From the NCBI GenBank assembly GCA_944332075.1, contig CALVJL010000001.1:138775-202774 (forward strand): a stretch of DNA of 64,000 bases. The letters are read 5' to 3'. The translations under genes were made by a program, and so were the position numbers. The notes under the pieces are model-generated. The model ran no database searches and was not told the origin of the DNA. It saw only the letters and a program-made list of their open reading frames with translations. Below, piece after piece: positions 3,124-58,526 of the stretch. The stretch is from an uncultured Bacilli bacterium (lineage in GTDB: Bacteria > Bacillota_I > Bacilli_A > RFN20 > CAG-449). Positions within the stretch are counted from its first letter, which is position 1; every line of letters starts with the position of its first letter.

Positions 3124-3167
3124 AAGTTTCATATAAAATGTCTTTGTGCCGTCGTTTGATACAAAAC

Positions 3168-5064: not shown

Positions 5065-5071
5065 GTAAAAA

Positions 5072-5112: not shown

Positions 5113-5126
5113 AAGTTTCAATAAAA

Positions 5127-5200: not shown

Positions 5201-5210
5201 AAAATAAGGG

Positions 5211-5633: not shown

Positions 5634-5693
5634 AAAAACCTCCTTAGCGATATTTAATTTACCACTTAATCAAGCAAAAATCAACTATAAATT

Positions 5694-7550: not shown

Positions 7551-7871
7551 AACAGAATAATTATTGATAAAAATACCTTCTAATTCAAGAAGTATTCATT
7601 AATGAATAAAAAATATTTATTATTCATAATTTGGCTTTAAATAATCAATAAATGCTTGTCATCTGTTTAATATTTTTGATTTTAAAGTTAAAAAATACTA
7701 AACAAAACAATTTATCAGTTATTTTATAAATAAAATATGAGCACAAAATACCTGAATAAATAATTTTTATTTTTTTATTGTTAAAAAAGATAAAATCACG
7801 CATAATAACCTAGTCTTTGTTTAGAGAAAGTAAACTTTATTCTTAAAGTCACAAAACAAGATGGAGGAATT

Positions 7872-8408: not shown

Positions 8409-8439
8409 TTTTTTTGTTTGTTGGAGAAGGAGATAAGTT

Positions 8440-13125: not shown

Positions 13126-13128
13126 AAA

Positions 13129-13156
13129 TAACCAGCTGTAAAGCTGGTTTTATTTA
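13129..13156. terminator. Bidirectional rho-independent terminator between convergent potD and sdaA
   Basis: Hairpin ACCAGCT-GTAA-AGCTGGT flanked by an A-run 5' and a T-run 3'. Confidence 0.6.
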
Positions 13157-14331
13157 TGGAAGAAATATTTAGCAAGCCCACCTTTAGACGTCTCTTTATA
13201 GGCGTTTTTGAGGTCTTTACCGGTTTGATACATCGTTTCGACAACTGTGTCAAACGATACTTGGCTTAAAGATGAAAGAATTGTCGCTAGATAGGCCGCA
13301 TCAAAGGCTCTTAATGTCGCGACGGCATTTCTTTCAATGCAAGGAATCTGAACCATTCCTTCCACCGGATCACAGGTTAATCCTAAATGATGTTCCATAG
13401 CTATTTCACTAGCGTATTCAATTTGCTTAATGTTTCCGCCTTCTAAAAAACAAATAGATGCGGCAGCCATTGAACAAGCTGAACCGATTTCCGATTGACA
13501 GCCAGCATAGGCTCCCGCAATCGAAGCGTTATGTTTAATAACATTACCAATAAGTCCACCTACTTTTAACGCCTCAATAATTTTTTCTATTGGAGTATTT
13601 TTATCATGGTAATAGTAGTAAAGCGCGGAGGCTAAAACCCCACTAGAACCGCAAGTCGGTGAAGTAACAACAATCGCTCCAGACGCATTTTCTTCTGAGC
13701 AAGCATAAGCAGATAACAATCTAATAACCTTTTCATGTCCATCATCTTCATGAAGCGATGAATAAATGATTTTTGCTTTTCTTTTAACTTGTAATTTTCC
13801 TGGTAATACACCGTCTTTAGTTAATCCATCAGTTATGGTTTTATCCATTTGAAAATATACTTTTTTTAAATATTCATCAATATTTTCAAAGCGATCAACA
13901 ACTTTATCTAAAGAAATATTATTTTCATAAGCGTATTTTTTTATTTCATCAAAATTATGAAAAGGATAAATATCTTTATTACTTTCTTCTACTTTGCTAT
14001 CAATGGAAATCGATCCACCTCCAAGAGAAATAAAAGTAATTTGCTTAATCATTTTTTCGTCATTAAAAACTTTTGCAATAAAAGTATTTGGATGTTTCAC
14101 TTTGCTCTTAATATCAAAGACTATTTTTGTATTAGGTCCGAGTTCATTTAGAATAATTATATCCGTAAGGTGACCTTTACCGGTTAAGGCTAAAGACCCA
14201 TAGAGAGTTATTTCAAAGCGCGTTGCCTCAGGAAAATGTTCTTTTAAATATTGGCAAGCTTTTGCCGGTCCCATCGTATGAGAAGAGGATGGGCCATGCC
14301 CAATTTTATAAAGTTCGACTAATGAATCCAT
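13150..14331 (-). CDS. sdaA: L-serine dehydratase (iron-sulfur dependent, single-chain)
   Basis: N-terminus LYKIGHGPSSSHTMGP matches the SdaA beta-domain signature (E. coli FKVGIGPSSSHTVGP). 393 aa. Confidence 0.8.
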   Translation of the reverse strand: MDSLVELYKIGHGPSSSHTMGPAKACQYLKEHFPEATRFEITLYGSLALTGKGHLTDIIILNELGPNTKIVFDIKSKVKHPNTFIAKVFNDEKMIKQITFISLGGGSISIDSKVEESNKDIYPFHNFDEIKKYAYENNISLDKVVDRFENIDEYLKKVYFQMDKTITDGLTKDGVLPGKLQVKRKAKIIYSSLHEDDGHEKVIRLLSAYACSEENASGAIVVTSPTCGSSGVLASALYYYYHDKNTPIEKIIEALKVGGLIGNVIKHNASIAGAYAGCQSEIGSACSMAAASICFLEGGNIKQIEYASEIAMEHHLGLTCDPVEGMVQIPCIERNAVATLRAFDAAYLATILSSLSQVSFDTVVETMYQTGKDLKNAYKETSKGGLAKYFFHK

Positions 14332-17986: not shown

Positions 17987-18204
17987 TTTCTCCCCATTGG
18001 ACACCTTGTAAAGCGTCAATATAAACGGCATTAGACCGTTTAACAAGGTGCAGGAAAGTACCATTAGCCACGGTACTTTCTTTTTTTGCAAAAATTAAGA
18101 AGATAAACTTCAAGTTCAGATGTATTTAGTTGCATTTTAATATTAATTATATAAGAATATCTATGCGCGACACATCGATAAGATGGTTGCAGCAGGAGTG
18201 TTTT

Positions 18205-18975
18205 ATGATTTTATTATTAGACCTTGGCAATACCAATCTCTATGTTGGTGTTGACCAAAACGGGACATTAATCAGCGAATACCGCACTGATAGTGATCTC
18301 ACGAGATCCTCTGATATGTATCGGAGTCTCTTAAAAGAATTCTTGAACCAAAACAATTTGAAAGCCGATGACTTTGAAGGTGCTATCCTTTCAAGCGTTA
18401 TCCCTTCCTTATCGCGTTCAATAGTCCATGCGGTTGAAACATTAATCGGAAAAAAGTGCTTATTAGTATCAAATAAGCTGAAATCCGGCCTATCAATTCA
18501 TATTGATAACCCAAGCGAACTCGGAGCAGATTTAGTCTGTGACTGCGTTGGAGCGATTGGTAATTATCCTCTTCCTTGTTTTATCACCGATTTAGGAACA
18601 GCAAACAAGTTCTTAATTGTCGATAACAAGAAAAACTTTATTGGAGGGATTATTACTCCAGGCATTAAATTATCGATGCAGTCATTAATTCGAAATGCTG
18701 CTCAATTAAGTGATTTATCTTATCAAAAACCAGAAAAAATCGTTGGCAAAAATACTTTAGATTGCCTCAATTCCGGAGCGATATACGGCACAAGTGCAAT
18801 GATAAAAGAATTACTTAGAGAAACTGAAAAAGAATTAAACTGTCAGTTATATCCGATTCTGACAGGTGGAAATAGTTATCTTGTTAAAGATGAACTATCA
18901 TCATTTAAATATGATCCGCATCTAATTTTTAAAGGATTAAAAGCTATCTATGAAAAGAATCGGGGGTTATTATAA
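18205..18975 (+). CDS. coaX: Type III pantothenate kinase
   Basis: N-terminus MILLLDLGNTNLYVGV matches the CoaX/Bvg accessory-factor fold signature. The start is trimmed from the six-frame ORF at 18130 to the conserved ATG at 18205. Confidence 0.85.
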   Translation: MILLLDLGNTNLYVGVDQNGTLISEYRTDSDLTRSSDMYRSLLKEFLNQNNLKADDFEGAILSSVIPSLSRSIVHAVETLIGKKCLLVSNKLKSGLSIHIDNPSELGADLVCDCVGAIGNYPLPCFITDLGTANKFLIVDNKKNFIGGIITPGIKLSMQSLIRNAAQLSDLSYQKPEKIVGKNTLDCLNSGAIYGTSAMIKELLRETEKELNCQLYPILTGGNSYLVKDELSSFKYDPHLIFKGLKAIYEKNRGLL

Positions 18976-18976
18976 T

Positions 18977-19642
18977 ATGAAAAACAGAAATCTTTTAATT
19001 TATAAAATGGCATTTACTGCCTTCTTTATCGCCTTAATTATCGTTATGGCTTTCACGCCTATTGGATACATTAAATTACCGTTTATGTCGGTTACTTTAT
19101 TAGTTTTACCGGTTGCTGTCGGAGCTATATTGCTCGGACCTGTCTGCGGAATGGTTCTCGGCTTAACCTTTGGTTTAACTTCTTTCGCCCAATGTTTCAT
19201 GGGTGATTATGTCGGAGGATTAATCGTTAGCCAAAATGTCTTTTTAGCCGCAGTTGTCTGTATTGTAACAAGAACTTTAATGGGCTTATTAACTGGCTTA
19301 ATTTTTAAAGGATTAAAGAAAGCTTTCCATAAAACTTTAACTAATCCAGAAGTCTCAAACGGAAAGAAGAAAAGCATAAATATCTTTATTCATGCCGTTA
19401 GCTGTTTCTCAGCCGCCTTCCTTAATACATTACTCTTTATGTCAACGCTAGTATTATTCTTCTATAATATTGTTGAACAATTAGCATCCACAAATGGTTC
19501 AAGCGTAATCATGTACGTCTTAGTTACCTGCATAGGTATTAACTGGGTTATTGAAACTTTAATTAATCTTTTCGCCGGAACAGTAATTACTTCTTCATTA
19601 GAAAATCTAGTTAACCGTAAATTCAATTTATTAAAACAATAA
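18977..19642 (+). CDS. Putative ECF-transporter S component (PanT-like, pantothenate) membrane protein
   Basis: About 220 aa with six TM helices, small and Gly-rich. It lies immediately downstream of coaX, an arrangement common for PanT. The assignment rests on context and topology. Confidence 0.45.
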   Translation: MKNRNLLIYKMAFTAFFIALIIVMAFTPIGYIKLPFMSVTLLVLPVAVGAILLGPVCGMVLGLTFGLTSFAQCFMGDYVGGLIVSQNVFLAAVVCIVTRTLMGLLTGLIFKGLKKAFHKTLTNPEVSNGKKKSINIFIHAVSCFSAAFLNTLLFMSTLVLFFYNIVEQLASTNGSSVIMYVLVTCIGINWVIETLINLFAGTVITSSLENLVNRKFNLLKQ

Positions 19643-19659
19643 AAAATATTTAAGCAAAT

Positions 19660-19692
19660 AAAAAGGTTGCAGCTGCAACCTTTATTTTTTTA
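19660..19692. terminator. Bidirectional terminator between the PanT-like gene and tkt
   Basis: AGGTTGCAGCTGCAACCT perfect palindrome flanked by A and T runs. Confidence 0.65.
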
Positions 19693-21657
19693 TTAGATAA
19701 TTTCCTTAATTCTTCTAACTAATTCATCGCTGGTAAAATTAAATTTCTTAATTACATCACCGGCCGGTGCTGAAGCTCCAAAAGTGTCAATGCTCATAAC
19801 ATGTGGAGCAAAGCGGTGCCATCCAAAGGATGAAAGCATTTCAACTGCGATGCGTTTACCATATTCATTGCCTAATGTTTCTTTAATGTAAGTTGGATCT
19901 TGCTTTAAGAATCTTTCTTGGCTCATCATTGAAACAACGCGGGAATCAATGCCTTCTTTAAGAAGTTTTTCTTGAGCTTCAACTGCTAAGGAAACTTCTG
20001 AACCAGAGGCGATAATGGTAATTTGTGCTTCTTTAACTTCACAAGATACAACATAGCCGCCTTTTTCACAATCTTTTGAAGAAGTACCTGGCAATACTGG
20101 AAGAGCTTGTCTAGTTAAAATAATGCAGCATGGATGAGTTGTTTGTTCAAACATCAAGCGATAAGCCGTTGCAACTTCATTAGCATCGCATGGGCGGAAA
20201 ACTTCAACATTTGGAATTGATCTAAGCATTGCTAATTGTTCGATAGGTTGATGCGTTGGTCCATCTTCACCGACAGCGATTGAATCGTGTGAGAAGAGAT
20301 AGACAGCTGGTAAATGGGAAAGAGCAGCCATTCTAATAGCCGGTTTAAGGTAATCAGCGAAAACCAAGAAGCAGCCGACATAAGTTCTTAATCCACCGTG
20401 GAGCAACATACCGTTTTGAATCGCTGCCATAGCAAATTCACGAATACCGAAGTTAATTGATCTGCCTTCGCGGTGTTCTGGAGTGAAATATGTTCCTCCG
20501 TTAATCTTAGTATAAACTGAACCAGCGACATCAGCAGAACCACCAATTAAATTGTGAATATTAGCGTGTAATAAATTAATAATAGTTTTTGAAGTATTTC
20601 TTGAAGCTTCCTTCATTCCTACTTCAAATTTTGGATTTTCTTGATAAAGTTCAGTAGTAACTGAATTATTTAAAGAAGAAGCGATTTTCTTTGCTTCAAT
20701 AGGATGAGCAATAGCGTATTCGTCATAGAGTTTGTTCCATTCTTGATATGCTTTTTCTCCTCTTGCAGCAAAGCTATTTTTGAAATCTTCATAAACTTCT
20801 GGTAAAACAGTGAAGTCAGGATAATCAAAGCCATATTTTAACTTTGCGTTATGTCCATCTTCTTCACCTAATGGAGAACCGTGGACTTTACTTGTACCTT
20901 GGTTAACAGAACCAAAGCCGATAACTGTATGGACCATGATTAATGTCGGTTTATCAGAAACTTTAGCTTTTGTTATCGCTCTATCGATATCATCAACATC
21001 ATTGCCGTCTTTAACTTCGATAACATTCCATTCACTTGCTTCAAAGCGTTTTTTAACGTCTTCAGAGAAAGATAAATCTAATCCGCCATCAAGGGTGACA
21101 TTATTAGCGTCATAGAAGAGAATAAGTTTATTTAACTTTTGATGTCCAGCAAACGAGATAGCTTCTTGGGAAATACCTTCTTGGAGGCAGCCATCACCGC
21201 ATAAAGCATAAGTATAGTGATCAAAAATATTTTTTGCTCCATCATACATAGCTTTTAATGATTGTTCAGCTAAAGCCAAACCAACAGCTTGAGCAATACC
21301 TTGACCTAATGGTCCTGCTGAAGCATCAACTCCCGGTGTAACACCGAATTCTGGGTGTCCAGGGGTTCTTGAATCTAATTGACGGAAATGTTTTAAATCA
21401 TCCATATTCAAATCATAGCCAGCCACATGCAATATTGCATAGAGAAGAGCTGAAGCATGACCGGCAGAAAGAACAAATCTATCGCGGTTAATCCATTCAG
21501 GATGATGTGGATCAGCTTTTAAATGGCGAGTAAAAAGAGTATAGAGAATTGGTGCAGAACCAAGTGCCATACCTGGGTGACCTGACTTTGCCTTATTTAT
21601 TTCATCAATACATAAGGCGCGAATGCAAGCAATCGATAATTTTGATGATGTCTTCAT
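19693..21657 (-). CDS. tkt: Transketolase
   Basis: 654 aa. The TPP-binding N-terminus (GHPGMALGSAPILYTLF) and the motif GEDGPTHQPIEQLA are present. Confidence 0.95.
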   Translation of the reverse strand: MKTSSKLSIACIRALCIDEINKAKSGHPGMALGSAPILYTLFTRHLKADPHHPEWINRDRFVLSAGHASALLYAILHVAGYDLNMDDLKHFRQLDSRTPGHPEFGVTPGVDASAGPLGQGIAQAVGLALAEQSLKAMYDGAKNIFDHYTYALCGDGCLQEGISQEAISFAGHQKLNKLILFYDANNVTLDGGLDLSFSEDVKKRFEASEWNVIEVKDGNDVDDIDRAITKAKVSDKPTLIMVHTVIGFGSVNQGTSKVHGSPLGEEDGHNAKLKYGFDYPDFTVLPEVYEDFKNSFAARGEKAYQEWNKLYDEYAIAHPIEAKKIASSLNNSVTTELYQENPKFEVGMKEASRNTSKTIINLLHANIHNLIGGSADVAGSVYTKINGGTYFTPEHREGRSINFGIREFAMAAIQNGMLLHGGLRTYVGCFLVFADYLKPAIRMAALSHLPAVYLFSHDSIAVGEDGPTHQPIEQLAMLRSIPNVEVFRPCDANEVATAYRLMFEQTTHPCCIILTRQALPVLPGTSSKDCEKGGYVVSCEVKEAQITIIASGSEVSLAVEAQEKLLKEGIDSRVVSMMSQERFLKQDPTYIKETLGNEYGKRIAVEMLSSFGWHRFAPHVMSIDTFGASAPAGDVIKKFNFTSDELVRRIKEII

Positions 21658-22172
21658 AATTCTTCCTTTTCAACAAAATAAAAGCCTAATAGACTTGGCT
21701 GAATCCCGAAGGACCAGAGTGGAAAGCTTTTCTCTACTTTAGGATTCCGAACTTAGATATCTTAATTAAGATGAACGGCCTTCAACACCATAGAGATGAA
21801 AAAACTCTCCTAAAATTTAATGTGGAATCGCATACGTCTATTAGACATTTACATTCTAACATGAAAATAAAAACATGGCAATTTTGTATATATTTTCTTA
21901 ATGTGCTTTTGTTGCACAGCAAGAAATTATCAAGCATATAAAGAAAAGATTGTCAAATATTAATTAAAATATCTTAAATAATCATTTATTTCATTATATA
22001 AATTCTTATAAAAAATTTTTTTAATCAAAAATGCATTTTCTACTTGATAAAAAGAAGCTGAATACTTAGAATAATAAAGGTAAATAAATCGTGGAAAGAA
22101 GGAGCGCCCGCTTCTCACCAGATCTAGAATATAGATTGGTAAAGAGCTACCAAAGATAACTTTGAAGTTTTG

Positions 22173-22205
22173 ATGGGCGCAGGATTCTGTGCCCATTTTA
22201 TTTTA
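22173..22205 (+). promoter_or_regulatory. infC leader attenuator hairpin (putative L20-responsive)
   Basis: ATGGGCGCAG-GATT-CTGTGCCCAT followed by TTTATTTT, about 20 nt upstream of the infC RBS. It lies within a ~560-nt untranslated leader. Confidence 0.4.
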
Positions 22206-22219
22206 CTAGGAGGATCTCA

Positions 22220-22777
22220 ATTATAGAAACGAATAATAAACAATTACCGCCAAAGAAGAACAAGTTTGGTAACGATTTAGTTGATAACTTAATCCGTTTC
22301 CCAAGAGTCTTAGTCGTTGATCAAGACGGTAATCAACTCGGTGAAATGTCATCGCGTGATGCCCAGATGGAGGCACGTTCACGGAATCTCAACTTACTAT
22401 GTGTAGCTCCGAACGCTAAAGTTCCGGTCTGCAAAATTCTCGATTATGGGAAATATCGCTATCAGCAGCAAAAGAAAGCTAAAGAAGCGAAAAAGAATCA
22501 AACCATTATCGAAGTAAAAGAAATTCAATTATCGCCAGTCATCGGTGAACACGATCTTCAGACTAAGTTAAAACATGCTGTGCGCTTCCTTGAGGATGGA
22601 AACAAAATCAAGATTACAATGCGTTTCAAAGGCAGACAGATTTCTCATATGGATGTCGGTAATCAAGTTATTGAGCGTTTTATTTCATTACTAAGCGATA
22701 AGGCTGTAGTGGAAAAAGCACCGATTCTAGACAAGAGAACCTTAATCGTCATTTTAGCGTCGAAAGTAAAAAAATAG
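22220..22777 (+). CDS. infC: Translation initiation factor IF-3 (AUU start codon)
   Basis: Conserved IF3 sequence (…VLVVDQDGNQLGEMSSRDAQ…PVCKILDYGKYRY…) continues in frame upstream of the first ATG (22346) back to ATT at 22220. That ATT sits 5-11 nt downstream of the RBS AGGAGGA. AUU initiation is the classical IF3 autoregulatory feature. Confidence 0.8.
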   Translation: MIETNNKQLPPKKNKFGNDLVDNLIRFPRVLVVDQDGNQLGEMSSRDAQMEARSRNLNLLCVAPNAKVPVCKILDYGKYRYQQQKKAKEAKKNQTIIEVKEIQLSPVIGEHDLQTKLKHAVRFLEDGNKIKITMRFKGRQISHMDVGNQVIERFISLLSDKAVVEKAPILDKRTLIVILASKVKK

Positions 22778-22789
22778 GAGGACAAAATC

Positions 22790-22984
22790 ATGCCAAAAAT
22801 GAAATCCAAAAAAGCTTTGACCAAAAGAGTTAAAGTCACAGGCAGTGGAAAATTAAAGAGACATTCCGCTTATATTTCCCACTTATCACACAACAAGTCA
22901 CACAAACAGATTCGCCAATTAAGAAAGGCAAGTCTTGTCAGCAAATCTGACTACAAGAGAATCAAGGATTTGATTCAACAATAA
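22790..22984 (+). CDS. rpmI: 50S ribosomal protein L35
   Basis: 64 aa basic protein ([13 protein letters not shown]...) following infC. Confidence 0.9.
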
Positions 22985-22998
22985 GGAGGTAATAGAAC

Positions 22999-23355
22999 AT
23001 GAGAGTTAAAGGCGGAACTACAACACACGCAAGAAGAAAAAAAGTCTTAAAGAGAGCTAAAGGTTACTTCGGTTCTAAACATCTTCTCTATAAGACCGCT
23101 CATGAGCAAGTAATGCATTCTCTCCACTATGCTTATGTTTCAAGAAGAACAATTAAGAGAGATTACCGCAAGTTATGGATTGTCAGAATCAATGCTGCCT
23201 GCCATCACTATGATATCAGCTATTCAACATTAATTCATGGATTAAAACTTGCTAACATCAACGTTAACAGAAAAATGCTTTCCGAAATCGCTATCGCTGA
23301 TGATAAGGCATTTGCTGAATTAGTCGCTACTGCTAAAAAAGCTTTAGCTAAGTAA
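22999..23355 (+). CDS. rplT: 50S ribosomal protein L20
   Basis: 118 aa ([28 protein letters not shown]...). It is followed by a hairpin CAAGGCTTCGGCCTTG and T-run terminator at about 23378-23402. Confidence 0.95.
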
Positions 23356-23503
23356 TTAGTAATTAAGCTCAGAAAAATTCAAGGCTTCGGCCTTGTTTTT
23401 TTCACCAAAAATATCTAATTTATCACCATCTGTAGCTTAATTATTCTTAATTTTTTTAAATGAAGATATTACAATAAAAACATAAACTGAATGAGGTGAT
23501 AAT

Positions 23504-24205
23504 ATGTCTTTTATTGAAATAGAAAACGTATCAAAAATATATGGTGAAGGAGCAACTGAAGTAAAAGCTCTTGATAATGTTTCTTTTAAAATAGAAAAAG
23601 GGGAAATCGTTGTCATTCTCGGAGCTTCTGGTGCCGGAAAATCAACTCTCTTAAACATTCTTGGAGGAATGGATAATTTAACATCTGGATCCTATAAAAT
23701 GGACGGAGAAGAAGTCGGTAATTATAATAGCAAGGAACTAGAAAACTTTCGAAGAAACAATATTGGTTTCGTCTTTCAATTTTATAATTTAATGAATAAT
23801 TTAACGGCTTTAGAAAACGTTGAAATCGCGGCCTCGCTTGTCAAAAATCCTCTTTCTAGCATTGATATGTTAGAAAAAGTTGATTTGGCAAAAAGAAAAA
23901 ATAATTATCCAGGTGAATTATCAGGAGGCGAACAACAAAGAGTCAGTATCGCTAGAGCACTTGTTAAAAATCCAAAACTACTTCTCTGCGATGAACCAAC
24001 AGGTGCATTAGACAGCAAAACTGGTATCTCTATTATCAAGCTTCTTTATGAAATTTCTAGAGAAGAAAATACCACTGTCATAATAGTAACCCATAACTCA
24101 TCTTTAAAAGATATTGCAACTCATTTAATTAGAATTGCTGATGGAAAAATCATCGAAAATACCTATCAGGAAAAGAAGGAGAACGTCGATGAAATCAAAT
24201 GGTAA
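23504..24205 (+). CDS. ABC transporter ATP-binding protein (MacB/LolD/FtsE-type)
   Basis: Walker A GASGAGKST, signature LSGGEQQRVSIARA and Walker B LLLCDEPTGALD. 233 aa. Confidence 0.9.
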   Translation: MSFIEIENVSKIYGEGATEVKALDNVSFKIEKGEIVVILGASGAGKSTLLNILGGMDNLTSGSYKMDGEEVGNYNSKELENFRRNNIGFVFQFYNLMNNLTALENVEIAASLVKNPLSSIDMLEKVDLAKRKNNYPGELSGGEQQRVSIARALVKNPKLLLCDEPTGALDSKTGISIIKLLYEISREENTTVIIVTHNSSLKDIATHLIRIADGKIIENTYQEKKENVDEIKW

Positions 24206-49264: not shown

Positions 49265-50521
49265 ATGAAAAGTCCATTAGCTGCAGCATATCGTCCGACT
49301 AATTTTGATGAAGTTGTCGGACAAACTCATTTAATAGGAAAAAATGGTGTTATTAGAAAAATGATTGATAATAACGCTCTTTCCAATATGATTTTATATG
49401 GTCCGTCAGGAACAGGCAAAACGACTATAGCCTCAATTATCGCCTCTTTAACAAATAAAAAGCTTTATAAACTCAACGCTACCACCGCATCAACAAAGGA
49501 CATCAAAGAAATAATTAACGATTTATCTAGCAGCCAAAGTAAAATTCTGCTTTATCTAGACGAAATTCAATATTTTTCAAAGAAGCAACAACAATCTTTA
49601 CTTGAAGTTATTGAAAATGGTGATATAACATTAATTGCCTCTACAACAGAAAATCCATATTTTTACATCTATAATGCTATCCTATCTCGCTCAACTATTT
49701 TTGAATTTCATCCGCTAAGTAATAAAGATATTGAAAAAGCTCTAACCCGCGTTATCAAACAAATTGAAAACGATGATAATTGCCGCATTGAGATAGATAA
49801 TGAATGTATTTCCTATCTCGCATCTTCAGCAGGAGGAGATGCGAGAAAAGCTTTAAATGCTCTTGAAGTCGCATTAAATTCATCTTCATTCTATGATCAA
49901 ACATATCATATATCGATTGATATTTTAAAATCTTTATCATTATCACCAGTACATTATGATAAAGATGGTGATGACCATTATGACTTACTATCGGCTTTTC
50001 AAAAATCAATCCGCGGATCAGATGCCGATGCCGGAATTTTTTATCTAGCAAAATTACTTGCTAGCAAAGATTTAATCTCACCTTGCCGGAGATTATTAGT
50101 CATCGCTAGTGAAGATATTGGTTTGGCCAATCCACAAGCGGCAGTCATTGTTAAGAATTTAGTAGATTCAGCATTCCAGCTCGGTTTACCAGAAGCGAGA
50201 ATTCCACTTGCTGAAGCAGTTATTTTTCTTTGCCTATGCCCGAAATCAAACTCAGCTATCACGGCTATTGATCAAGCTATGGATGATATAAGCAAGGGTC
50301 GCGGAAAAGAAATACCCGCATATTTAAAAGACGGCCATTATCAAGGAGCCGTCAAATTAAATCATGCTCAAGGATATATCTATCCTCATACTTTTCCACA
50401 TCACTATGTCCAACAACAATATCTTCCTGATGATTTAAAAGAAAGAGTTTATTATTTACCTGGAGAAAATAAGATAGAATTGTCTTATAAAGAATATTGG
50501 GATAAAATTAAAAAGAATTAA
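49265..50521 (+). CDS. rarA: Replication-associated recombination protein A (RarA/MgsA AAA+ ATPase)
   Basis: N-terminus LAAAYRPTNFDEVVGQTHLIG, Walker A GPSGTGKTT and the MgsA C-terminal helical domain are present. 418 aa. Confidence 0.9.
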   Translation: MKSPLAAAYRPTNFDEVVGQTHLIGKNGVIRKMIDNNALSNMILYGPSGTGKTTIASIIASLTNKKLYKLNATTASTKDIKEIINDLSSSQSKILLYLDEIQYFSKKQQQSLLEVIENGDITLIASTTENPYFYIYNAILSRSTIFEFHPLSNKDIEKALTRVIKQIENDDNCRIEIDNECISYLASSAGGDARKALNALEVALNSSSFYDQTYHISIDILKSLSLSPVHYDKDGDDHYDLLSAFQKSIRGSDADAGIFYLAKLLASKDLISPCRRLLVIASEDIGLANPQAAVIVKNLVDSAFQLGLPEARIPLAEAVIFLCLCPKSNSAITAIDQAMDDISKGRGKEIPAYLKDGHYQGAVKLNHAQGYIYPHTFPHHYVQQQYLPDDLKERVYYLPGENKIELSYKEYWDKIKKN

Positions 50522-50898
50522 TCTTCTTCACGTTTTTTTAATTCTTTAATTAAGAATAATAACGATCCGTTTTTAAGGCACGAAATTAATAATCCATCGA
50601 CGAAGCGATCTTGCTTAATGATATTGGAAATCAAAGCTTCAACAACTATTGTTGGAGCTTTTTTAACGTCTTCATCTTTTAGAGTTTTGACATTTCTATC
50701 ACCATAATAATCTTTTAAAATTTTATTATAATCTTGATGAATGACACCTTCATTATAAAGATCTTCGCGTAAAGTAATAATTTCTCGATCAAAAGTTAGA
50801 AGCGGAGTTGATTCTTTAGAGATAAAATTATACCCATCATCAGTATTCTCTAATTTTTCTAAATAAGGAATGTACTCATATATTTTTTTGTATTTCAT
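50518..50898 (-). CDS. Hypothetical protein (126 aa)
   Basis: Soluble protein with no recognisable motif. Confidence 0.4.
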   Translation of the reverse strand: MKYKKIYEYIPYLEKLENTDDGYNFISKESTPLLTFDREIITLREDLYNEGVIHQDYNKILKDYYGDRNVKTLKDEDVKKAPTIVVEALISNIIKQDRFVDGLLISCLKNGSLLFLIKELKKREED

Positions 50899-51051: not shown

Positions 51052-51082
51052 AACAAAAAAGGTCTCTGCATTGCAGAGACCA
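51052..51082 (-). terminator. Rho-independent terminator of the 1100-aa membrane protein gene
   Basis: GGTCTCTGCA-TT-GCAGAGACC perfect hairpin with a T-run on the minus strand. Confidence 0.65.
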
Positions 51083-51094
51083 AGATAGGATATT

Positions 51095-54000
51095 TTACTT
51101 TGTGAGAACTACAGTGCCACCTAACGCAAGTACCATTACAGCAGCGGCATCGGAGATTTCGTCACATTCAATATAAAGCTTTTTGTCGAGATCACCATGA
51201 ACATCAACTGCTAAGGTTGTTGTGTCTAAACTAATAGCATTAATTTCTTTTAATGTCTCTAAAGTAACCTTTTTAACTCCTTCAAGAGTATCGAGATAAA
51301 CCAATGATTTCATCTCTTCGGTGATAGCATGTTCTTTTTCTTTAACCGGGATTAAAGACATAATTGCTGGAACGCTTTCACCTAACTCACCAACGAGAGC
51401 AAAGTCTGCGTGGTTAGTCATTTTCTCACTAAGATTTAATTTTTCAAAAATCTCTTTACCGGAAGGTGTAAGATCCTTTTCATAATCGGTATGAACAAAA
51501 GCTTGAGTTAATCCTAATCCACGACCTTCACAGACAATTCTGACTAATTCTAAGCTTCTCTTAAAAGCAAGATCTGATTTAATTTTAACTGTGAATGGGA
51601 CGTCCTTATATGCAGCTTTATCCGCTAAAGAGAATTGATGATAGCGATCAAGTGGTAAAGTAGGATCATTTGGATCAAGAGCTAGATGTAATCTTAATGT
51701 TTTTCCGGAAACAGAAATCTTCGCAACTAAGCCAGATTTTCTAAATGCTTCGTTTTTGAAGACCAATCTAGACGAGCATCCATAGCTTAATAAAGCATTT
51801 TTAATTTCAGAATAGTAATGTTTACTCTTTTCAGAAATAAAGAATAATTTACTAGCAAATGGTGTCCGGCGAATTTTCAAGGAATTATCAGCATTTTCAG
51901 CAGCCGGAGTAATTTCGGTTACTTCTCCCTCTTCTCTATCTTCTTCATCATCGTCATCTTCACCATCATCGATTTCATCTTCTGAAAAGTCTTCTTCAGA
52001 TGTTGTGAATAATGGGCGAGTGTCATCTTCTACTTCAAATTCTTTTGGAGTATAGAACATAACTTTACCATGTGTTGCTAAGATAGCGACTGCAACAGGT
52101 AAATCGATATCATCACAGATAACTGTAATTGGCTCTGTTACTGCTTCATGCATTTTGACAAAAATACGTTGAACATCAAGAGCAATATTGTTTACTTCTT
52201 TTAAAGTTTCCGTTGAAATAACTTTTCCAGGAACATACTTCAATGCTGTTTCGACATAGACATTGACTTCTTCACCATCATTATGATTTAATCCATCTTC
52301 AACCTTTTTAACTGGAATAAGAGAACAAATCTTATTGACAGATGGTAATCCGTCTTTGCCGAATTTTTCGCTATATGTTTCATCAGCTTGAGAAACCATC
52401 AAATCGGTAATGCCTAGCTTTTCGAAAATTGCATCACCATCGACATCAAGGGTTGGAACATAGTCAAATGCTTCAAAGTTTCTCTTGAAACGGAAACGAC
52501 GAACTTCGCCGCAAAGAATATCAATTAACTCTAACGCCCGTTTGCAAGCCAATCCGGATTTAACTTTCATTGTAAACGGAACATCTTTATAAGCCTTTCT
52601 TTCGGCTAATGAGAATTGATGATAACGATCTTCCTCAAATCTTGCATCTGTTGGATCAAGAGCTAAATGGATTCTTAATGTCTTACCAGCAACGCTGAGT
52701 TTTGCTAATAATCCGCGTTTTCTGAACGTCTCATTTTTACTTGTTAATCTAGAAGTGGCTCCATATTGTAATAAAGCATTCTTGATTTCAGAATAGAATC
52801 CTTTAGTTTTATCAGAAGTAAATTTGAGTTTATTGATAAAGGTTCTCTTAATGATAGGTCTAGTTTCAATAGTTGTTGGAACAACTGCTGTTTCCTTAAC
52901 CTCTGTAACAACTGTTTCTGTAGGAGTTTCTACTTTCTCTTCGACAATTGTTTCTTCAACCTTCTCAACTGTTTCTGTTACAGGTTCAGCTACTGGTTCT
53001 TCTTCAGTTGCCTCAAGAACAGGTTCTTCACTTTCAATAGATTTTTCTTCTTCAGGAGTAATTTCTTCAAGTTCTTCTTCCGTAGTCTCAACATAAGGAA
53101 TATCTTCAGCGAGAAGTGCTTGATTGAAATATTTAGCTCTTAAGAAGATAACAATTACCCAAATAACAAATAAAGCGAGATAACCAATTAAAGTATAAGT
53201 TTGGAATTGAATAGCCACATCAAACGAGAGGAAAACACCAGCATATGCAAGTGAAACGATTGCAAAATCGATTACATTGATTTTTTTACAAACCATCTTT
53301 TTAGTAAATAATCCGATAAAGAACATTACTAATAAGACTAAAGCAACCAATAGAGTACCTAGATATGCGAGAATATTAAGGTGTGTTGCATTAAATGCTC
53401 TAAATCCTGAATAATCAACATAGATTAATCCGGCAGCTAAAACTAAGCCGACAGCAGCTAATGGAGTAAGAGAGAATTTATTAAAGACCTGTCCGATGTA
53501 AACAGCAAATAAACCCTTCTTATCATTGACTTCGCTCTTACTGACGATTAATGCTCTAAATGCAGTTAAGAACATTACGGCATAAGTCAAAGTGAAATAA
53601 ACACCGAGGAAATGATTATTAATGGCTTTTACACCATTTAATAATACCTGCAATCCAAAATATAAACCAACGCCAATCATCATATACATTACAAAGGCGA
53701 GTAAGATATCAAGGAAATTAACTTTGCGCATTTTCTTAAAGATGCAGAAAATCAAGAAAATAACAGTTAAAGCTAAAGCGATAATTTCGAATACTAAAAG
53801 CTTTCTGCCTGTAGATAGAGTAGCAAATGCCGGAATAACATCACCGATAAATCCAAATACATCAGTATAAATGATAATTAACGCAAGGATAATACCGACG
53901 ATTAATCCAGATAAGATAAACACAACTGGATTGAAATGAGAATATAATGATGCAAAATAATTTTTAACATCACCTTTTTCGTCATTAACTTCTCTTACCT

Positions 54001-54397
54001 CAGCCATACGAATAATTAAGAAAATTAATCCGACAGCCAATAAAGCAAGATAGACGAAACTGTTAGTTTTGAATTCTTTATCATAGCCGAGAGTAAAGCC
54101 GAATAAGGTAGCACAGGCGGCAATAAAGAATGTCAGTAGAAAATCCCCTTTAGTTGTATACTTTTTAAAGAGGAATGGAATAACAGCAGCTATCGATAAA
54201 ACCAAAATGGCAAGATATACGACAGTTAAACCCGTTCTTGCGGCTTCCACATATTGTCCAGGTAAGAGACTACCAAGAATATTTGTCCGGAAAAGATAAA
54301 AAATACCAATTCCGAAAATGCAACCGACAACAAGGGCTAGTATTCCATCGAGTTTTTTAAAAAAATCTCTGCAAAAACTAGTTTTATTGCGTTCCAT
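51095..54397 (-). CDS. Large polytopic membrane protein with acidic E/T/V-rich linker and two tandem ~110-aa repeated cytoplasmic domains; unknown function
   Basis: 1100 aa. About twelve TM helices lie in the first ~440 aa. A low-complexity acidic linker follows. Two paralogous modules then appear (…FINKLKFTSDKTKGFYSEIKNALLQYGATSRLTSKNETFRKRGLLAKLSVAGKTLRIHLALDP… and …FASKLFFISEKSKHYYSEIKNALLSYGCSSRLVFKNEAFRKSGLVAKISVSGKTLRLHLALDP…), each followed by a ~100-aa tail. Confidence 0.7.
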   Translation of the reverse strand: MERNKTSFCRDFFKKLDGILALVVGCIFGIGIFYLFRTNILGSLLPGQYVEAARTGLTVVYLAILVLSIAAVIPFLFKKYTTKGDFLLTFFIAACATLFGFTLGYDKEFKTNSFVYLALLAVGLIFLIIRMAEVREVNDEKGDVKNYFASLYSHFNPVVFILSGLIVGIILALIIIYTDVFGFIGDVIPAFATLSTGRKLLVFEIIALALTVIFLIFCIFKKMRKVNFLDILLAFVMYMMIGVGLYFGLQVLLNGVKAINNHFLGVYFTLTYAVMFLTAFRALIVSKSEVNDKKGLFAVYIGQVFNKFSLTPLAAVGLVLAAGLIYVDYSGFRAFNATHLNILAYLGTLLVALVLLVMFFIGLFTKKMVCKKINVIDFAIVSLAYAGVFLSFDVAIQFQTYTLIGYLALFVIWVIVIFLRAKYFNQALLAEDIPYVETTEEELEEITPEEEKSIESEEPVLEATEEEPVAEPVTETVEKVEETIVEEKVETPTETVVTEVKETAVVPTTIETRPIIKRTFINKLKFTSDKTKGFYSEIKNALLQYGATSRLTSKNETFRKRGLLAKLSVAGKTLRIHLALDPTDARFEEDRYHQFSLAERKAYKDVPFTMKVKSGLACKRALELIDILCGEVRRFRFKRNFEAFDYVPTLDVDGDAIFEKLGITDLMVSQADETYSEKFGKDGLPSVNKICSLIPVKKVEDGLNHNDGEEVNVYVETALKYVPGKVISTETLKEVNNIALDVQRIFVKMHEAVTEPITVICDDIDLPVAVAILATHGKVMFYTPKEFEVEDDTRPLFTTSEEDFSEDEIDDGEDDDDEEDREEGEVTEITPAAENADNSLKIRRTPFASKLFFISEKSKHYYSEIKNALLSYGCSSRLVFKNEAFRKSGLVAKISVSGKTLRLHLALDPNDPTLPLDRYHQFSLADKAAYKDVPFTVKIKSDLAFKRSLELVRIVCEGRGLGLTQAFVHTDYEKDLTPSGKEIFEKLNLSEKMTNHADFALVGELGESVPAIMSLIPVKEKEHAITEEMKSLVYLDTLEGVKKVTLETLKEINAISLDTTTLAVDVHGDLDKKLYIECDEISDAAAVMVLALGGTVVLTK

Positions 54398-54615
54398 AAG
54401 TTGAAACCCCTTTCTTATTATTAAAAATATTTTAATATTTTAAGGGGACAAATATCAATATTTTTGAAAAAATAACGCGAAACGTATGCAGTTTTTCAAC
54501 ATTTCGCGTCGCTTTTTTACAAATCGATAAAAATAGAATGAATTAATTTACAACATTAGAAAAATTACTGTTTTAAATTGGTCAAAAAGACACACCATTG
54601 AATAATAATATTTTT

Positions 54616-55806
54616 TTATTCAATTTCTTCTAAAAGGTAATACTTTTTCAACTTTCTACCGCTATTAAAATATACAATATTTTCAGTTTTATTAGCGATT
54701 TCTAACATTCCTTGATCATCGCTCAATCCATTTATATCTATAATAAAATCCTCTTGGTCATAACAAATTACCTTAATTTTTTGACCATTTCGAATATCGT
54801 TTTTTCGAATAATCGTAGCTTTTTGAGTAATTTCATCATAATCATCCACATAACCTAGATACCTTTGCTTTACGTTATGAGGTTTAACATGGATTAAATC
54901 ATTAGAAGTAATTTCGCCTTGTTTAAGATATCCTTCAGTCAATGGGCGATTTTCCATATCATTCAATTCATTTTCTTTTTTATCAAGTATTTCTTTAGTT
55001 AAAGTATGATTATAATATGAATCTATTACCGATTTATAAATTTTCGCACATTTAGCTAAATAATAAGCTGATTTCATTCTTCCTTCAATTTTTAAAGAAG
55101 AAACGTTTGCTTCAATCAAATCCGAAACTTTTTTTATTCCGCATAAATCCTTACTGCCAATAGGAAATGAATCCTGAGATACTAACTGGTTATCTTGGTA
55201 GAGATGATATTCCCAGCGGCAAGAATGCGCGCATCCTCCTCTATTTGCATCACGTGATACCATATAATTACTTAAAGAGCAACGGCCTGAAATTGAAGAG
55301 CAAAGCCCTCCGTGGATGAAAACTTCAATTTCTGTAATTTTGCTTCCAGCTAATACGTTTATTTCTGATAATGTACATTCCCTAGCTAAAACTACCCTTG
55401 TCGCCCCTAATGATTTATAAAACATCAACGTTTCTTGGTTCATCGCTGACACTTGAGTTGAAACATGGGCTTCCAAATTTAAATTAAGTTTTTTTATCAA
55501 GCTAATTATATAAAGAGAAGAAACAATCAAAGCGTCAACATGAATTTTATCTAATGCTTTAAGATATTCTTCAATTTGCTCTAAATCGCGATAATGCGGG
55601 ACAATATTGACTGTGACATAAACCTTTTTATTTAAAGAATGCGCGAATTTTACGCCTTCTTCAATATCTTCTAAAGTGAAATTGCTTGCTTTTGCGCGTA
55701 AAGAAAAATGTTTCCCGCCAATAAATACGGCATCACCGCCATAAAGTAAAGCAATCTTTAATCTCGTCAAATCACCAGCAGGCATCAATAATTCAATCTT
55801 GTCCAT
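54616..55806 (-). CDS. Peptidase U32 family protein
   Basis: N-terminus ELLMPAGDLTRLKIALLYGGDAVFIGG and the conserved Cys-rich region (GGLCSSISGRCSLS...CAHSCRW) of the U32 family. 396 aa. Confidence 0.8.
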   Translation of the reverse strand: MDKIELLMPAGDLTRLKIALLYGGDAVFIGGKHFSLRAKASNFTLEDIEEGVKFAHSLNKKVYVTVNIVPHYRDLEQIEEYLKALDKIHVDALIVSSLYIISLIKKLNLNLEAHVSTQVSAMNQETLMFYKSLGATRVVLARECTLSEINVLAGSKITEIEVFIHGGLCSSISGRCSLSNYMVSRDANRGGCAHSCRWEYHLYQDNQLVSQDSFPIGSKDLCGIKKVSDLIEANVSSLKIEGRMKSAYYLAKCAKIYKSVIDSYYNHTLTKEILDKKENELNDMENRPLTEGYLKQGEITSNDLIHVKPHNVKQRYLGYVDDYDEITQKATIIRKNDIRNGQKIKVICYDQEDFIIDINGLSDDQGMLEIANKTENIVYFNSGRKLKKYYLLEEIE

Positions 55807-56641
55807 ACACTATCTCCTGGTTAAGTAAATAAGAAGAAAAGTTTTCTTCTTGAACACTTTCTCCATTTAGAGCTTTTCTAACTAATTCAACCATCGGCAT
55901 ATTTTCATTAATAAATGAACTATCAATAAAGAAATATTCCATTCCTCTATCTAAGAAATCTTTCAACGCCTGGGAAGGGAAGAAAATCTTATCAGAAAAA
56001 ATATAAAACAAATAATTATCTTCGTGAATTTTAAAATATTGAGCGCGCGAACTTTCTTTTAACGTTAATTCTTTTTGACCATTCAATTTTATATCTCGAT
56101 GTTCATCCAAGAAAAGAGAAAGCATTTTTCTCTTCGACATATATAGCTGAGGATAGCCAAAACACATCATGCCTATCTGACAATTTTTTCTGTTTTCTAA
56201 AATATTGAGATAACCATTATATTCGCAATCTTTAGAAATAATAAATTTATTTAATCCAAGCTGTTTTAACGTCTCTATTTCATATGAATTAAGTAATAAA
56301 GTAGGCGAATAATAAATCATCTTTTCAAGTGCATTATATTCTTTTGCTTTTATAAAATAATAAAAGTCACTAAAAAGGAAATGATAGTTTTGCTTAATTA
56401 GCAAAGGAAAATACAAATTAGCAGCAATTTTATCCTTCTCTTCTAACGGACGATCAATTAACAAATAAATTTCCTTATTATATTTATTTTTAACTTTATC
56501 TAAAACTTCGTATTGCAAAGCTATATCATCTCTTGTTGAAAGATATTTAACGGCGATTACGATTACATCACATGCATCAAGATTAGGATTTCTGATTTTA
56601 CTTCTCAAATCATCTTCTTTAAATAAATATAAAATTTTCAT
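55793..56641 (-). CDS. Putative second U32-family protein (YrrN-like), divergent
   Basis: 282 aa immediately upstream of, and overlapping, the U32 gene. This paired arrangement matches yrrN-yrrO. Sequence similarity is weak, so the call rests largely on context. Confidence 0.35.
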   Translation of the reverse strand: MKILYLFKEDDLRSKIRNPNLDACDVIVIAVKYLSTRDDIALQYEVLDKVKNKYNKEIYLLIDRPLEEKDKIAANLYFPLLIKQNYHFLFSDFYYFIKAKEYNALEKMIYYSPTLLLNSYEIETLKQLGLNKFIISKDCEYNGYLNILENRKNCQIGMMCFGYPQLYMSKRKMLSLFLDEHRDIKLNGQKELTLKESSRAQYFKIHEDNYLFYIFSDKIFFPSQALKDFLDRGMEYFFIDSSFINENMPMVELVRKALNGESVQEENFSSYLLNQEIVYGQD

Positions 56642-56642
56642 A

Positions 56643-58526
56643 TTACTCTAATTCAAACGCTCCAGTATAAAGTTGATAATAAATACCTTTTTTCTCAATA
56701 AGCTCAGCATGGCTGCCTCTTTCAATAATCTTACCATGATCTAAAACCATGATGGCATCAGAATTTCTCACGGTCGACAAGCGATGTGCAATAACAAAAA
56801 CAGTTCTTCCCTTCATTAGTTCGTCCATACCCTCTTGAACTAATGATTCTGTCCACGTATCAATTGACGATGTCGCCTCATCGAGGATTAATACCGGAGG
56901 GTTACAAATAGCTACTCTGGCAATAGCTAACAGCTGTCTTTGACCTTGTGATAAGTTACCACCATCACCGGTGATATAAGTATCATAACCATTTTCTAAA
57001 AGGTTGATAAATTGATCAGCCTTAGCTAATTTCGCAGCTTGATAAACTTCTTCATCCGTCGCATCTTCTTTTCCGTACTTGATATTATCTTTAATCGTAC
57101 CTGAGAAAAGGTGAGTATCCTGTAAAACGATACCTAAACTGCGACGCAAATCTTCCTTCTTAATTTTTTTAATATCGATTCCGTCATAAGTAATCGTACC
57201 TTTTTGAATATCATAAAAGCGATTAATTAAATTAGTTATCGTTGTTTTTCCAGCGCCTGTTGCTCCGACAAAAGCAATTTTCTGACCAGGTTTTGCATAT
57301 AAAGAAATATCGTGAAGAATTGTTTTATCTTCATCATAACCAAATGTGACGTCGTAAAAGCGAACATCGCCGCATAATTTAATCAAGCGGACACTCTGAT
57401 CACTTTCGATATGTTTCCAAGCCCAGTGATGTGTGACTTCTTTAACCTCAATAAGGTTGCCATTTTCTTCTTTAACATTAACTAACGTAACATCACCTTG
57501 ATCGGTTTCACCTTTTTCATCAAGTAACGCAAAGATTCTTTGAGCACCAGCTAAAGCCATGAAGATAAAATTAATCTGATTAGAGACTTGTCCGATTGGT
57601 TGAGTAAACTGTTTATTATATAGTAAGAAGGTTGCAAAAGCTCCCGCGGTAAATCCGCCAAAGCCACTAAAAGCTAAAATTGATCCAACAACCGCGGTAA
57701 CTGCAAAATTAACATATCCTAAATTATGAATAATCGGCATCAAGGAAATCGCATATTTATTAGCTCGATAGTTGCTTTCACGCATATGATTATTCAATTC
57801 ATCAAAACCATCTTTAACTTCTTGTTCGTGATTAAAGACTTTAATAACTTTCTGCCCTTCAATCATCTCTTCAATATAACCATTAATTTTTGATAAAACA
57901 ATTTGGTTATCCATAAAATATGTCGATGAACGCTTTCCAATAATTTTAATAGCAATTAGCATTAAGAAAACTGAACAAACAGTCACTATTGTCAAAATCC
58001 ACGATGTTGTTATCATCATCACAAATACAGAAACAATGGTAATAAATGAAGATGTAATCTGCGGAATAGACTGAGAAATCATCTGTCTTAAGGAATCGGT
58101 ATCGTTAGTATAAGTCGACATTACTTCACCAATCGTCCGTGAGTCAAAATAACGGATTGGCAACGTTTCCATATGATAAAACATTTCATCACGCAAAATT
58201 TTCAAAGTATCTTGAGTAATGAATACCATGATAAACGCATAAGCATATGTTGAAGCAATTGAGACTAAGAATAATCCGCTCATTTCAAGTAAAATCACAA
58301 TTAATGGAGTCATGTTCTCAGGATTTGCTAACAAATCCGGAACGACATTATCAATAAGTGATTTTAAAAGCGACATTGAAGAAACCTGAGTAACCGCGGC
58401 AACAATCAATAAAATGATTACCAAAATAATCTTATAAGTGTTAATCTTATAAACATATTTCATCAAACGTGAAAGGATTTTGAAAGGATGATCAATTTTG
58501 ACACGATAATTTACATGACGCGGCAT
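56643..58526 (-). CDS. ABC exporter, fused permease-ATPase subunit (heterodimeric multidrug/lipid exporter type)
   Basis: 627 aa. Six TM helices, then Walker A GATGAGKTT, signature LSQGQRQLLAIARV and Walker B LILDEATSSID. Confidence 0.9.
   Translation of the reverse strand: MPRHVNYRVKIDHPFKILSRLMKYVYKINTYKIILVIILLIVAAVTQVSSMSLLKSLIDNVVPDLLANPENMTPLIVILLEMSGLFLVSIASTYAYAFIMVFITQDTLKILRDEMFYHMETLPIRYFDSRTIGEVMSTYTNDTDSLRQMISQSIPQITSSFITIVSVFVMMITTSWILTIVTVCSVFLMLIAIKIIGKRSSTYFMDNQIVLSKINGYIEEMIEGQKVIKVFNHEQEVKDGFDELNNHMRESNYRANKYAISLMPIIHNLGYVNFAVTAVVGSILAFSGFGGFTAGAFATFLLYNKQFTQPIGQVSNQINFIFMALAGAQRIFALLDEKGETDQGDVTLVNVKEENGNLIEVKEVTHHWAWKHIESDQSVRLIKLCGDVRFYDVTFGYDEDKTILHDISLYAKPGQKIAFVGATGAGKTTITNLINRFYDIQKGTITYDGIDIKKIKKEDLRRSLGIVLQDTHLFSGTIKDNIKYGKEDATDEEVYQAAKLAKADQFINLLENGYDTYITGDGGNLSQGQRQLLAIARVAICNPPVLILDEATSSIDTWTESLVQEGMDELMKGRTVFVIAHRLSTVRNSDAIMVLDHGKIIERGSHAELIEKKGIYYQLYTGAFELE

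Follow-up and report, generated by a model that had tools for sequence, protein, structure and literature searches.

We examined a 64,000-nucleotide stretch of contig CALVJL010000001.1 from an uncultured Bacilli bacterium (GenBank assembly GCA_944332075.1), hereafter the window, and focused on one large gene on its minus strand. A single open reading frame (ORF) of 1,100 amino acids (aa) plus a stop codon was confirmed at positions 51095 to 54397. The predicted protein begins with a domain of 12 transmembrane (TM) helices, and the remainder is taken up by two acidic linkers and by two copies of a cassette that joins a basic domain, here called X, to a domain related to ribosomal protein uL15, here called C. 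The original prediction, made from the sequence alone, had described a large polytopic protein with about 12 N-terminal TM helices and acidic linkers, and both features were borne out: hydropathy analysis placed 12 hydrophobic helices between residues 18 and 420, an AlphaFold2 (AF2) model likewise contained 12 long helices, and Asp and Glu account for 30 of 87 residues in the disordered linker 1 (isoelectric point [pI], 4.05) and for 24 of 47 residues in linker 2.

The duplicated unit is ∼265 to 270 aa long and occupies residues 513 to 782 and 840 to 1099. The two copies shared 49% identity across 269 aligned residue pairs (E = 6e-74) in a BLASTP comparison of the C-terminal halves against each other. 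Each cassette consists of a basic X domain (∼125 aa), a short connector, and a uL15-like C domain (∼90 aa); X1 and X2 are strongly basic; every connector, C domain, and linker is acidic. Thus, the two paralogous modules that had been predicted are present, but the unit of ∼110 aa proposed for them corresponds to the X half only, and the "CD(D/E)I...G" ending that had been counted as part of the same domain belongs to the separate C domain. The repeat had also been left without a family. This stands for X, for which Pfam, NCBIfam, and PHROGs contain no model, but not for C, which is a homologue of the uL15 C-terminal domain (CTD), as described below. A PHROGs scan of the whole protein also gave no match.

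X has conserved motifs of its own (YSEIKN, GKTLxLYLALDP, KxKS, and a trailing DY...GLIK). No Pfam family recurred when 34 diverse X copies were scanned singly, and an X profile found no sequence relative in the PDB. The AF2 model of X copy 2 had a predicted local distance difference test score (pLDDT) of >90 over model residues ∼20 to 130. The best Foldseek match of this model in the PDB was YjbR (2FKI; E = 0.049; probability, 0.98; target-normalized template modeling score [TM-score], 0.60), and further PDB neighbors were DR2400/DUF419, VP1028, a YdhG-like protein, and the CTD of phage T4 MotA. Among viral models (BFVD), X matched an unnamed 215-aa phage protein (E = 1.2e-4; probability, 1.00) and a DUF5655 protein (E = 1.6e-3; probability, 1.00). 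The fold that these proteins share has been named "double-wing" in the literature (PMC7641849). Based on the predicted structure, we can confidently assign X to the YjbR/MotA-CTD/DUF5655 double-wing fold class, as a fold-level match only. X resembles the MmcQ/YjbR family (PF04237, DUF419) and the MotA CTD in its size (∼110 to 125 aa) and in the order of its alpha and beta elements, and the class also contains the related YdhG-like/DUF1801, TfoX-N, and DUF5655 groups. However, none of the 34 diverse X copies matched PF04237 at E values up to 10, and the whole protein gave no match to this family; X is not a member of the PF04237/YjbR family by sequence but belongs to the same fold class. Further, X copies are strung in tandem on acidic linkers that follow membrane anchors, and the searches that we made found no description of such an arrangement for YjbR-type families.

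The identity of the C domain became apparent through the family rather than through the window protein itself. The window protein scored 16.5 bits against PF00828 (E = 0.012; cutoff, 21.5 bits) and 20.5 bits against TIGR01071 (E = 3.4e-4; cutoff, 77.95 bits), and C copy 2, searched as a single sequence, matched uL15 in the PDB with an E value of 0.2. In contrast, a profile built from 30 C domains of the family matched residues ∼69 to 145 of bacterial uL15 in the PDB at an E value of 1e-17, with Firmicute uL15 ranked first, and two relatives lie above the curated cutoff of PF00828 (21.5 bits), with 35.6 bits for P0037 and 53.5 bits for P0063. At the sequence level, there is therefore solid support for the C domain as a homologue of the globular CTD of uL15. 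The classic uL15 signature of PROSITE entry PS00475 fit 25 of 46 C domains of the family; none of the 25 came from the subfamily with 12 TM helices, and the window protein fit it in neither of its two C copies. A possible metal site formed by the H...CDE residues of the subfamily C domains was also considered and was dropped, because the His and Cys are not invariant.

The window protein differs from canonical uL15 (bacterial L15, encoded by rplO; PF00828, Ribosomal_L27A; TIGR01071) in several ways. Canonical uL15 is a free protein of ∼145 aa with a Gly/Lys/Arg-rich N-terminal extension, whereas the window protein has 1,100 aa and 12 TM helices and contains the C domain twice, each copy corresponding to residues ∼69 to 145 only and preceded by an acidic connector and X. 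Unlike rplO, the gene does not lie within a ribosomal-protein operon. Because it lacks the N-terminal extension and the signature and has the wrong size and genomic context, the window protein is not a uL15 ribosomal protein; rather, it contains a uL15-derived domain. It had been proposed that a confident match to a well-known domain would make the repeat routine. In a formal sense, uL15 is such a domain, but it is not a routine find where membrane-protein tails end.

An exhaustive search with the X profile returned 3,394 representative clusters (defined at 50% identity) at an E value of ≤1e-3 and 3,111 at ≤1e-10, and the exact TM-X-C-X-C layout was also found in the diverged representatives P0057 and P0064. 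The suggestion that the protein may be lineage-specific can thus be set aside. We defined the X-domain family as proteins with at least one X located C-terminal to any membrane anchor, with acidic linkers and an optional terminal uL15-like domain; the window protein, with two X and two C domains behind 12 TM helices, fits this definition. Architectures were counted in the 150 best-scoring representatives, a set biased toward multicopy proteins because scores sum over copies. Each of these proteins contained 2 to 7 X copies. At least one TM helix was predicted in 92 of the 150, and in all 92 the helices were N-terminal to the first X. The uL15-like domain was present in 38, and in all 38 it was located at the extreme C terminus of a multidomain, mostly membrane-anchored protein, an arrangement not shared by canonical uL15. 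The charge pattern of the window protein is common to the set: 93% of 386 X copies had a pI of >9 (median, 9.73), and the linkers had a median pI of 4.1.

The anchors of the family vary and include single short N-terminal helices (with the N terminus predicted to be outside), 4-TM domains, and 10- to 12-TM domains. Giant anchored relatives have a signal peptide, a large ectodomain (with Beta_helix_3, Flg_new, or Ig_3 repeats), and a stop-transfer helix, and soluble coiled-coil proteins also carry X. One member from outside the window (P0132) consists of SBP_bac_3, a TM helix, GGDEF, EAL, and two X domains and thereby ties X to a cyclic di-GMP signaling protein. A genome scan with a four-sequence alignment yielded 308 loci, and all 80 of those listed came from gut Bacillota. 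In a word-indexed homolog search, where low-complexity words saturated the filter of 8,000 candidates, the whole protein had 3 matches; the TM-domain profile, whose words saturated the same filter, had 1. Literature searches on uL15-like, PF00828, and double-wing/DUF419 proteins found no description of this architecture, and the public sources gave no name for any family protein that was looked up. Since neither a curated model nor a source annotation or paper describing them came to light, X and the X-uL15 cassette appear to lie outside every described family, although they are assembled from familiar parts, namely a fold and a ribosomal domain that are both known.

In a tree of the modules, module 1 of four diverged proteins formed one clade, and module 2 grouped with single-module proteins. 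Since the module 1 sequences form a clade of their own, the duplication is old and shared and predates the split between P0057 and P0064; the same clade rules out a recent, lineage-specific duplication. The Erysipelotrichaceae ortholog (locus L007, protein P0161; 757 to 763 aa) has a single module. A second candidate for a single-module ortholog, at locus L002, was not accepted. This locus has a scaffold gap of 10 N's within the acidic linker (L002:2919-2928), and the ortholog has been called as two proteins of 452 and 257 aa; this apparent split gene stems from the gap, and the gap could hide a module 1. Hence, only L007/P0161 is secure. P0004 is a fragment from L002, and P0007 is another fragment; the acidic linkers of the family are assembly-fragile.

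Three independent lines of evidence lead us to infer that the X and C domains are cytoplasmic, which answers the question left by the original prediction of the side of the membrane on which the repeats lie. In the window protein, the loops of the N-terminal side contain 24 Lys and Arg residues and those of the other side 7, with an even number (12) of helices. Among 93 anchored relatives, the C-terminal flank of the last TM helix before X was the more Lys/Arg-rich flank in 73; the opposite was true of 9, and the flanks were equal in 11. Finally, the two X domains of P0132 directly follow its cytoplasmic GGDEF-EAL region, with no TM helix between them.

The membrane domain contains an internal repeat that the original prediction had not seen. 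When profiles of its three thirds were compared by hhalign, unit 1 (residues 1 to 133), unit 2 (residues 134 to 286), and unit 3 (residues 287 to 430) were related with probabilities of 91.7% (units 1 and 2), 97.1% (units 2 and 3), and 95.4% (units 1 and 3), and on the basis of this profile-profile comparison, the 12 helices represent a triplicated 4-TM unit. With the duplicated cassettes, the whole protein is thus composed of internal repeats. Each unit bears a cytoplasmic "KK..K.N..D..L" motif, in which D85, D230, and D377 are invariant; these residues are located at the cytoplasmic membrane interface beside the KK motifs and not in the middle of the membrane. The TM domains of orthologs align from end to end at 21 to 30% identity. 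No Pfam or NCBIfam family matched the TM domain, and its AF2 model was of low confidence (pLDDT, 55.7), so that a Foldseek search of this model against the PDB was uninformative (best E value, 1.1; TM-score, ≤0.25). Neither its sequence nor the fold search of this low-confidence model linked the TM domain to a 12-TM transporter superfamily (MFS, APC, or others), and its 3 × 4 arrangement differs from the 2 × 6 repeat of MFS.

The DNA under linker 1 (52824 to 53096) had been described as visibly repetitive. Tandem Repeats Finder (TRF) identified no tandem repeat there at a score of ≥30, and a true tandem DNA repeat in linker 1 was rejected on this ground; weak repeats of 9 and 15 nucleotides (nt) were found in linker 2 only (51922 to 51979). 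The visible repetitiveness of linker 1 is a codon-level compositional bias. On the opposite strand, a 90-aa Ser/Thr/Val-rich ORF at 52824 to 53096 (+) is the antisense of linker 1 and represents a low-complexity artifact, not a gene.

We also addressed the concern that the linkers had been collapsed or expanded during assembly. The window protein belongs to a 90% identity cluster of 57 members, and lengths were compared for the 15 members that were listed. Eleven of these have the 1,100-aa form, and one of them, on a 304-kb contig, is identical to the window protein; because of this recurrence, we do not consider the window copy to be a collapse or expansion artifact. A contig of a metagenome-assembled genome (MAG), CALVKD010000041.1, carries a 100% match to the window protein, and P0001 is a same-length ortholog with 98% identity. 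Three of the 15 listed members lack residues 474 to 492, and one lacks residues 475 to 481; all indels among them are in frame and fall in linker 1, which is genuinely length-polymorphic between strains. The coordinates of the protein segments and of the signals around the gene are given in Table 1.

Table 1. Segments of the 1,100-aa protein and nearby sequence signals (window coordinates)
Feature	Position	Strand	Details or evidence
Whole ORF	51095..54397	-	1,100 aa + stop codon
12-TM domain, residues 1-425	53123..54397	-	Hydropathy, ortholog alignment, hhalign
Acidic linker 1, residues 426-512	52862..53122	-	E/T/V/P-rich; pI 4.05; 30 D+E in 87 residues
X copy 1, residues 513-640	52478..52861	-	pI 10.35; hidden Markov model (HMM) independent E value (i-E) 1.4e-53
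Connector 1, residues 641-687	52337..52477	-	Family motif DY...(I)FEKLG(I/L), seen in alignments
C copy 1, residues 688-790	52028..52336	-	pI 4.87; local HMM i-E 2e-27
Acidic linker 2, residues 791-837	51887..52027	-	D/E-rich; pI 4.05; 24 D+E in 47 residues
X copy 2, residues 838-965	51503..51886	-	pI 9.96; AF2; fold matches
Connector 2, residues 966-1009	51371..51502	-	Alignment of the two copies
C copy 2, residues 1010-1100	51098..51370	-	pI 4.63; weak single-sequence uL15 matches
Promoter-like TTGATA-18-TAAAAT	54429..54458	-	10/12 consensus matches; ∼30 nt upstream of the start codon
Shine-Dalgarno-like GAAAGGGG	54407..54414	-	9 nt before ATG; read from sequence
Terminator-like hairpin	51061..51081	-	9-bp stem with 6 G-C pairs, T-run; starts 14 nt past the stop codon

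Based on these consensus matches, the gene appears to form its own, monocistronic transcription unit. The promoter-like site is a consensus match only, as the number of such sites in the region was not above the shuffled expectation. A perfect 8-bp stem (ACGCGAAA / TTTCGCGT) followed by a T-run was seen by eye at ∼54475 to 54509 (-), between the promoter-like site and the adjacent U32 gene; it was missed by the terminator scan, probably owing to its long loop, and its position suggests that the U32 operon does not extend into the target gene. No Rfam RNA family was found within 50 to 56 kb of the window. Elsewhere in the window, the GC content was 0.35 to 0.37 at 8001 to 14000 and 18001 to 24000, compared with ∼0.28 to 0.32 over most of the rest.

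The gene lies directly downstream of a pair of trhP2/trhP1-like U32 genes (54616 to 56641, -). One encodes a 282-aa protein with the U32 motif only and the other a 396-aa protein with U32 and U32_C, which fits Bacillus subtilis YrrN and YrrO (TrhP2 and TrhP1), proteins required in that species for 5-hydroxyuridine at tRNA position 34 (ho5U34) (PMC6599085). The same order of U32 pair and target gene was found at L001, L002, and L007. No yrrM-like methyltransferase gene adjoins the U32 pair in the window; the pair is preceded upstream by two genes for ABC exporters (56643 to 58526 and beyond). Downstream of the target, a 126-aa DUF6508 protein is encoded at 50518 to 50898 (-), and the 3′ end of its gene overlaps a convergent rarA/mgsA-like AAA+ gene (49265 to 50521, +) by 4 nt; at L002, a 126-aa ORF with no Pfam match on record lies two genes downstream of the ortholog.

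Clustering of neighbors across 80 genome loci revealed a second arrangement. At 44 to 49 Christensenellales-type loci, a gene for a soluble X protein is located directly upstream, on the same strand, of genes for RNase J, a YrrM/TrmR-type methyltransferase (a family-3 O-methyltransferase), and U32, with median gaps of 267, 22, and 3 nt, respectively. In this type of locus (L010 to L083; e.g., L016:∼3000-11000), the cluster continues to aroA after U32, and the X protein consists of a coiled coil, a long acidic Glu/Pro/Val/Ala tract, and one X, with a total length of ∼300 to 1900 aa. No DNA-metabolism genes recurred in the neighborhoods. It is suggestive that X genes neighbor RNA-metabolism genes in two bacterial classes in which the gene orders differ.

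We propose that the window protein may serve, from its anchor in the membrane, as a multivalent platform for a polyanionic partner in the cytoplasm, with RNA or ribosomal particles as the probable candidates, and we give this proposal, which was built from sequence and predicted structure, a probability of roughly 45%. In such a platform, the membrane domain would mainly serve as an anchor, the acidic linkers would act as flexible spacers repelled by the anionic membrane, and the multivalent surface for the partner would be provided jointly by the uL15-derived domains and the basic X domains. RNA, ribosomes, or the RNA-processing machinery would thereby be held at the membrane. Binding of a polyanion is proposed because of the high pI of nearly all X copies, and the link to RNA is proposed because of the tRNA-hydroxylase U32 and RNase J neighbors. 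The concept is comparable to that of RNase Y, a membrane-tethered scaffold of RNA metabolism in Firmicutes, in that in both an N-terminal membrane anchor would be followed by a region that is disordered or coiled and by an RNA-related module in the cytoplasm, and X-domain genes, too, associate with genes for RNase J and tRNA modification. This is a functional analogy and not homology: the window protein resembles RNase Y in neither sequence nor domains (KH and HD domains are absent), and it has no recognizable catalytic domain. A more specific form of the proposal holds that the X/uL15-CTD cassette couples membrane proteins of gut Bacillota, from the window protein to adhesin-like surface giants and a cyclic di-GMP enzyme, to ribosomes or the RNA-processing machinery through a domain that would have been recruited from rplO for recognition of a ribosomal or rRNA surface; we put this forward tentatively, as it seems to us rather doubtful.

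Several observations weigh against the platform. The structural match of X is at the fold level only, with a best PDB E value of 0.05, no sequence similarity to PDB entries, and no recurrent Pfam family. In the 12-TM subfamily, the C domains are acidic (pI 4.6 to 4.9) and have lost the classic uL15 signature (KVLARG...FS has become VK(I/V)H(E/D)...CDEI). Because of these two changes, the C domains of this subfamily may no longer bind what uL15 binds, and their partner may differ. In uL15, moreover, most contacts with rRNA are made by the basic N-terminal extension, which is absent from the C domain. An alternative ligand for basic domains close to a membrane could be anionic lipids or the acidic linkers of the same protein. 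The neighborhood evidence comes essentially from two orthologous groups, and the Clostridial loci are phylogenetically related and do not represent 44 independent observations; the X gene is often ∼267 nt from the RNase J gene, and the window gene appears to be transcribed on its own. Lastly, anchoring may not be the only role of the TM domain, which is conserved and triplicated and has invariant Asp residues.

The last point would be accommodated if the protein were a transporter or channel with the triplicated 12-TM domain as its functional core and the cassettes as regulators. End-to-end conservation, the invariant D85, D230, and D377, and the repeat structure are in keeping with this, and inverted or tandem TM repeats are common among transporters. 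Nonetheless, we consider a transporter very unlikely, since no transporter family in Pfam or NCBIfam matched, the fold search gave only E values of >1 and TM-scores of <0.25 (on a low-confidence model), the Asp residues face the cytoplasmic interface near the KK motifs instead of the membrane center, and the cassette is independent of this TM domain, being found also behind single helices, 4-TM anchors, and coiled coils. The modules might alternatively be displayed outside the cell as cell-wall- or surface-binding domains, as repeated modules on low-complexity linkers look like wall-binding arrays and some relatives contain the surface-protein repeats Beta_helix_3, Flg_new, and Ig_3. In those relatives, however, the ectodomain and X are kept apart by a stop-transfer TM helix flanked by RKK, and the charged n-region typical of signal peptides is missing from single N-terminal anchors; given also the positive-inside count (24 versus 7 over an even number of helices) and the placement of X directly after GGDEF-EAL in P0132, extracellular display is highly improbable. 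Nor is the ORF at all likely to be a chimera produced by misassembly of repetitive linkers. The scaffold gap at L002, where gene callers split the protein, and the differences in linker 1 length between assemblies show how such an artifact could arise, but the same 1,100-aa sequence is present in many independent assemblies, including the exact match on the 304-kb contig, the diverged P0057 and P0064 share the architecture, and the intact reading frame is accompanied by a Shine-Dalgarno sequence and by a terminator.

The remaining alternatives concern the partner of the cassette. X could be a DNA-binding double-wing domain that holds chromosomal or foreign DNA at the membrane, with the uL15-like domain as an accessory. 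Its closest folds, YjbR and the MotA CTD, have been described as DNA binding, X is strongly basic, and a DUF5655 protein and the unnamed 215-aa phage protein were its best viral fold matches. Yet DNA binding by YjbR is itself a prediction (PMC7641849), the neighbors that recur (tRNA hydroxylase, RNase J, and tRNA methyltransferase) and the ribosomal origin of the C domain point to RNA, and genes of DNA metabolism do not recur, and so we regard a nucleoid tether as unlikely. The cassette might also be a protein-protein adaptor that recruits specific proteins without direct binding of nucleic acid, or a self-associating scaffold in which intra- or intermolecular electrostatic attraction leads to clusters or condensate-like patches beneath the membrane. 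Basic X domains (median pI, 9.73) that alternate with acidic linkers (4.1) in 2 to 7 copies are typical of multivalent electrostatic scaffolds, the occurrence of the cassette on unrelated proteins (adhesin-like giants and GGDEF-EAL) is expected of a generic localization or clustering module, and the window C domains lack the uL15 signature. On the other hand, the fit of 25 of 46 C domains to the signature and the profile E value of 1e-17 suggest that a uL15-like surface has been retained, and a scaffold of this kind would leave the conserved RNA-metabolism neighborhood unexplained; we think it improbable.

The presence of a uL15-derived domain at the end of 38 of the 150 best representatives, all of them nonribosomal and most of them membrane anchored, was unexpected. 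It also carries a risk for annotation, in that proteins of the X family can be mislabeled as "50S ribosomal protein L15" and gene callers can split them at assembly gaps in the linkers. If the cassette does not bind ribosomes or RNA, X would still be a very common unmodeled domain of lineages that are abundant in the human and animal gut (Christensenellales, Erysipelotrichaceae, Anaeroplasmataceae, and uncultured Bacilli), and it deserves a family model and a structure. If the cassette does bind ribosomes or RNA, it would give Firmicutes a means of bringing translation or the turnover of RNA to the membrane and would connect surface proteins to the cytoplasm. Should the more specific coupling to ribosomes hold true, the cassette would constitute a bacterial membrane-to-translation tether with no known counterpart.

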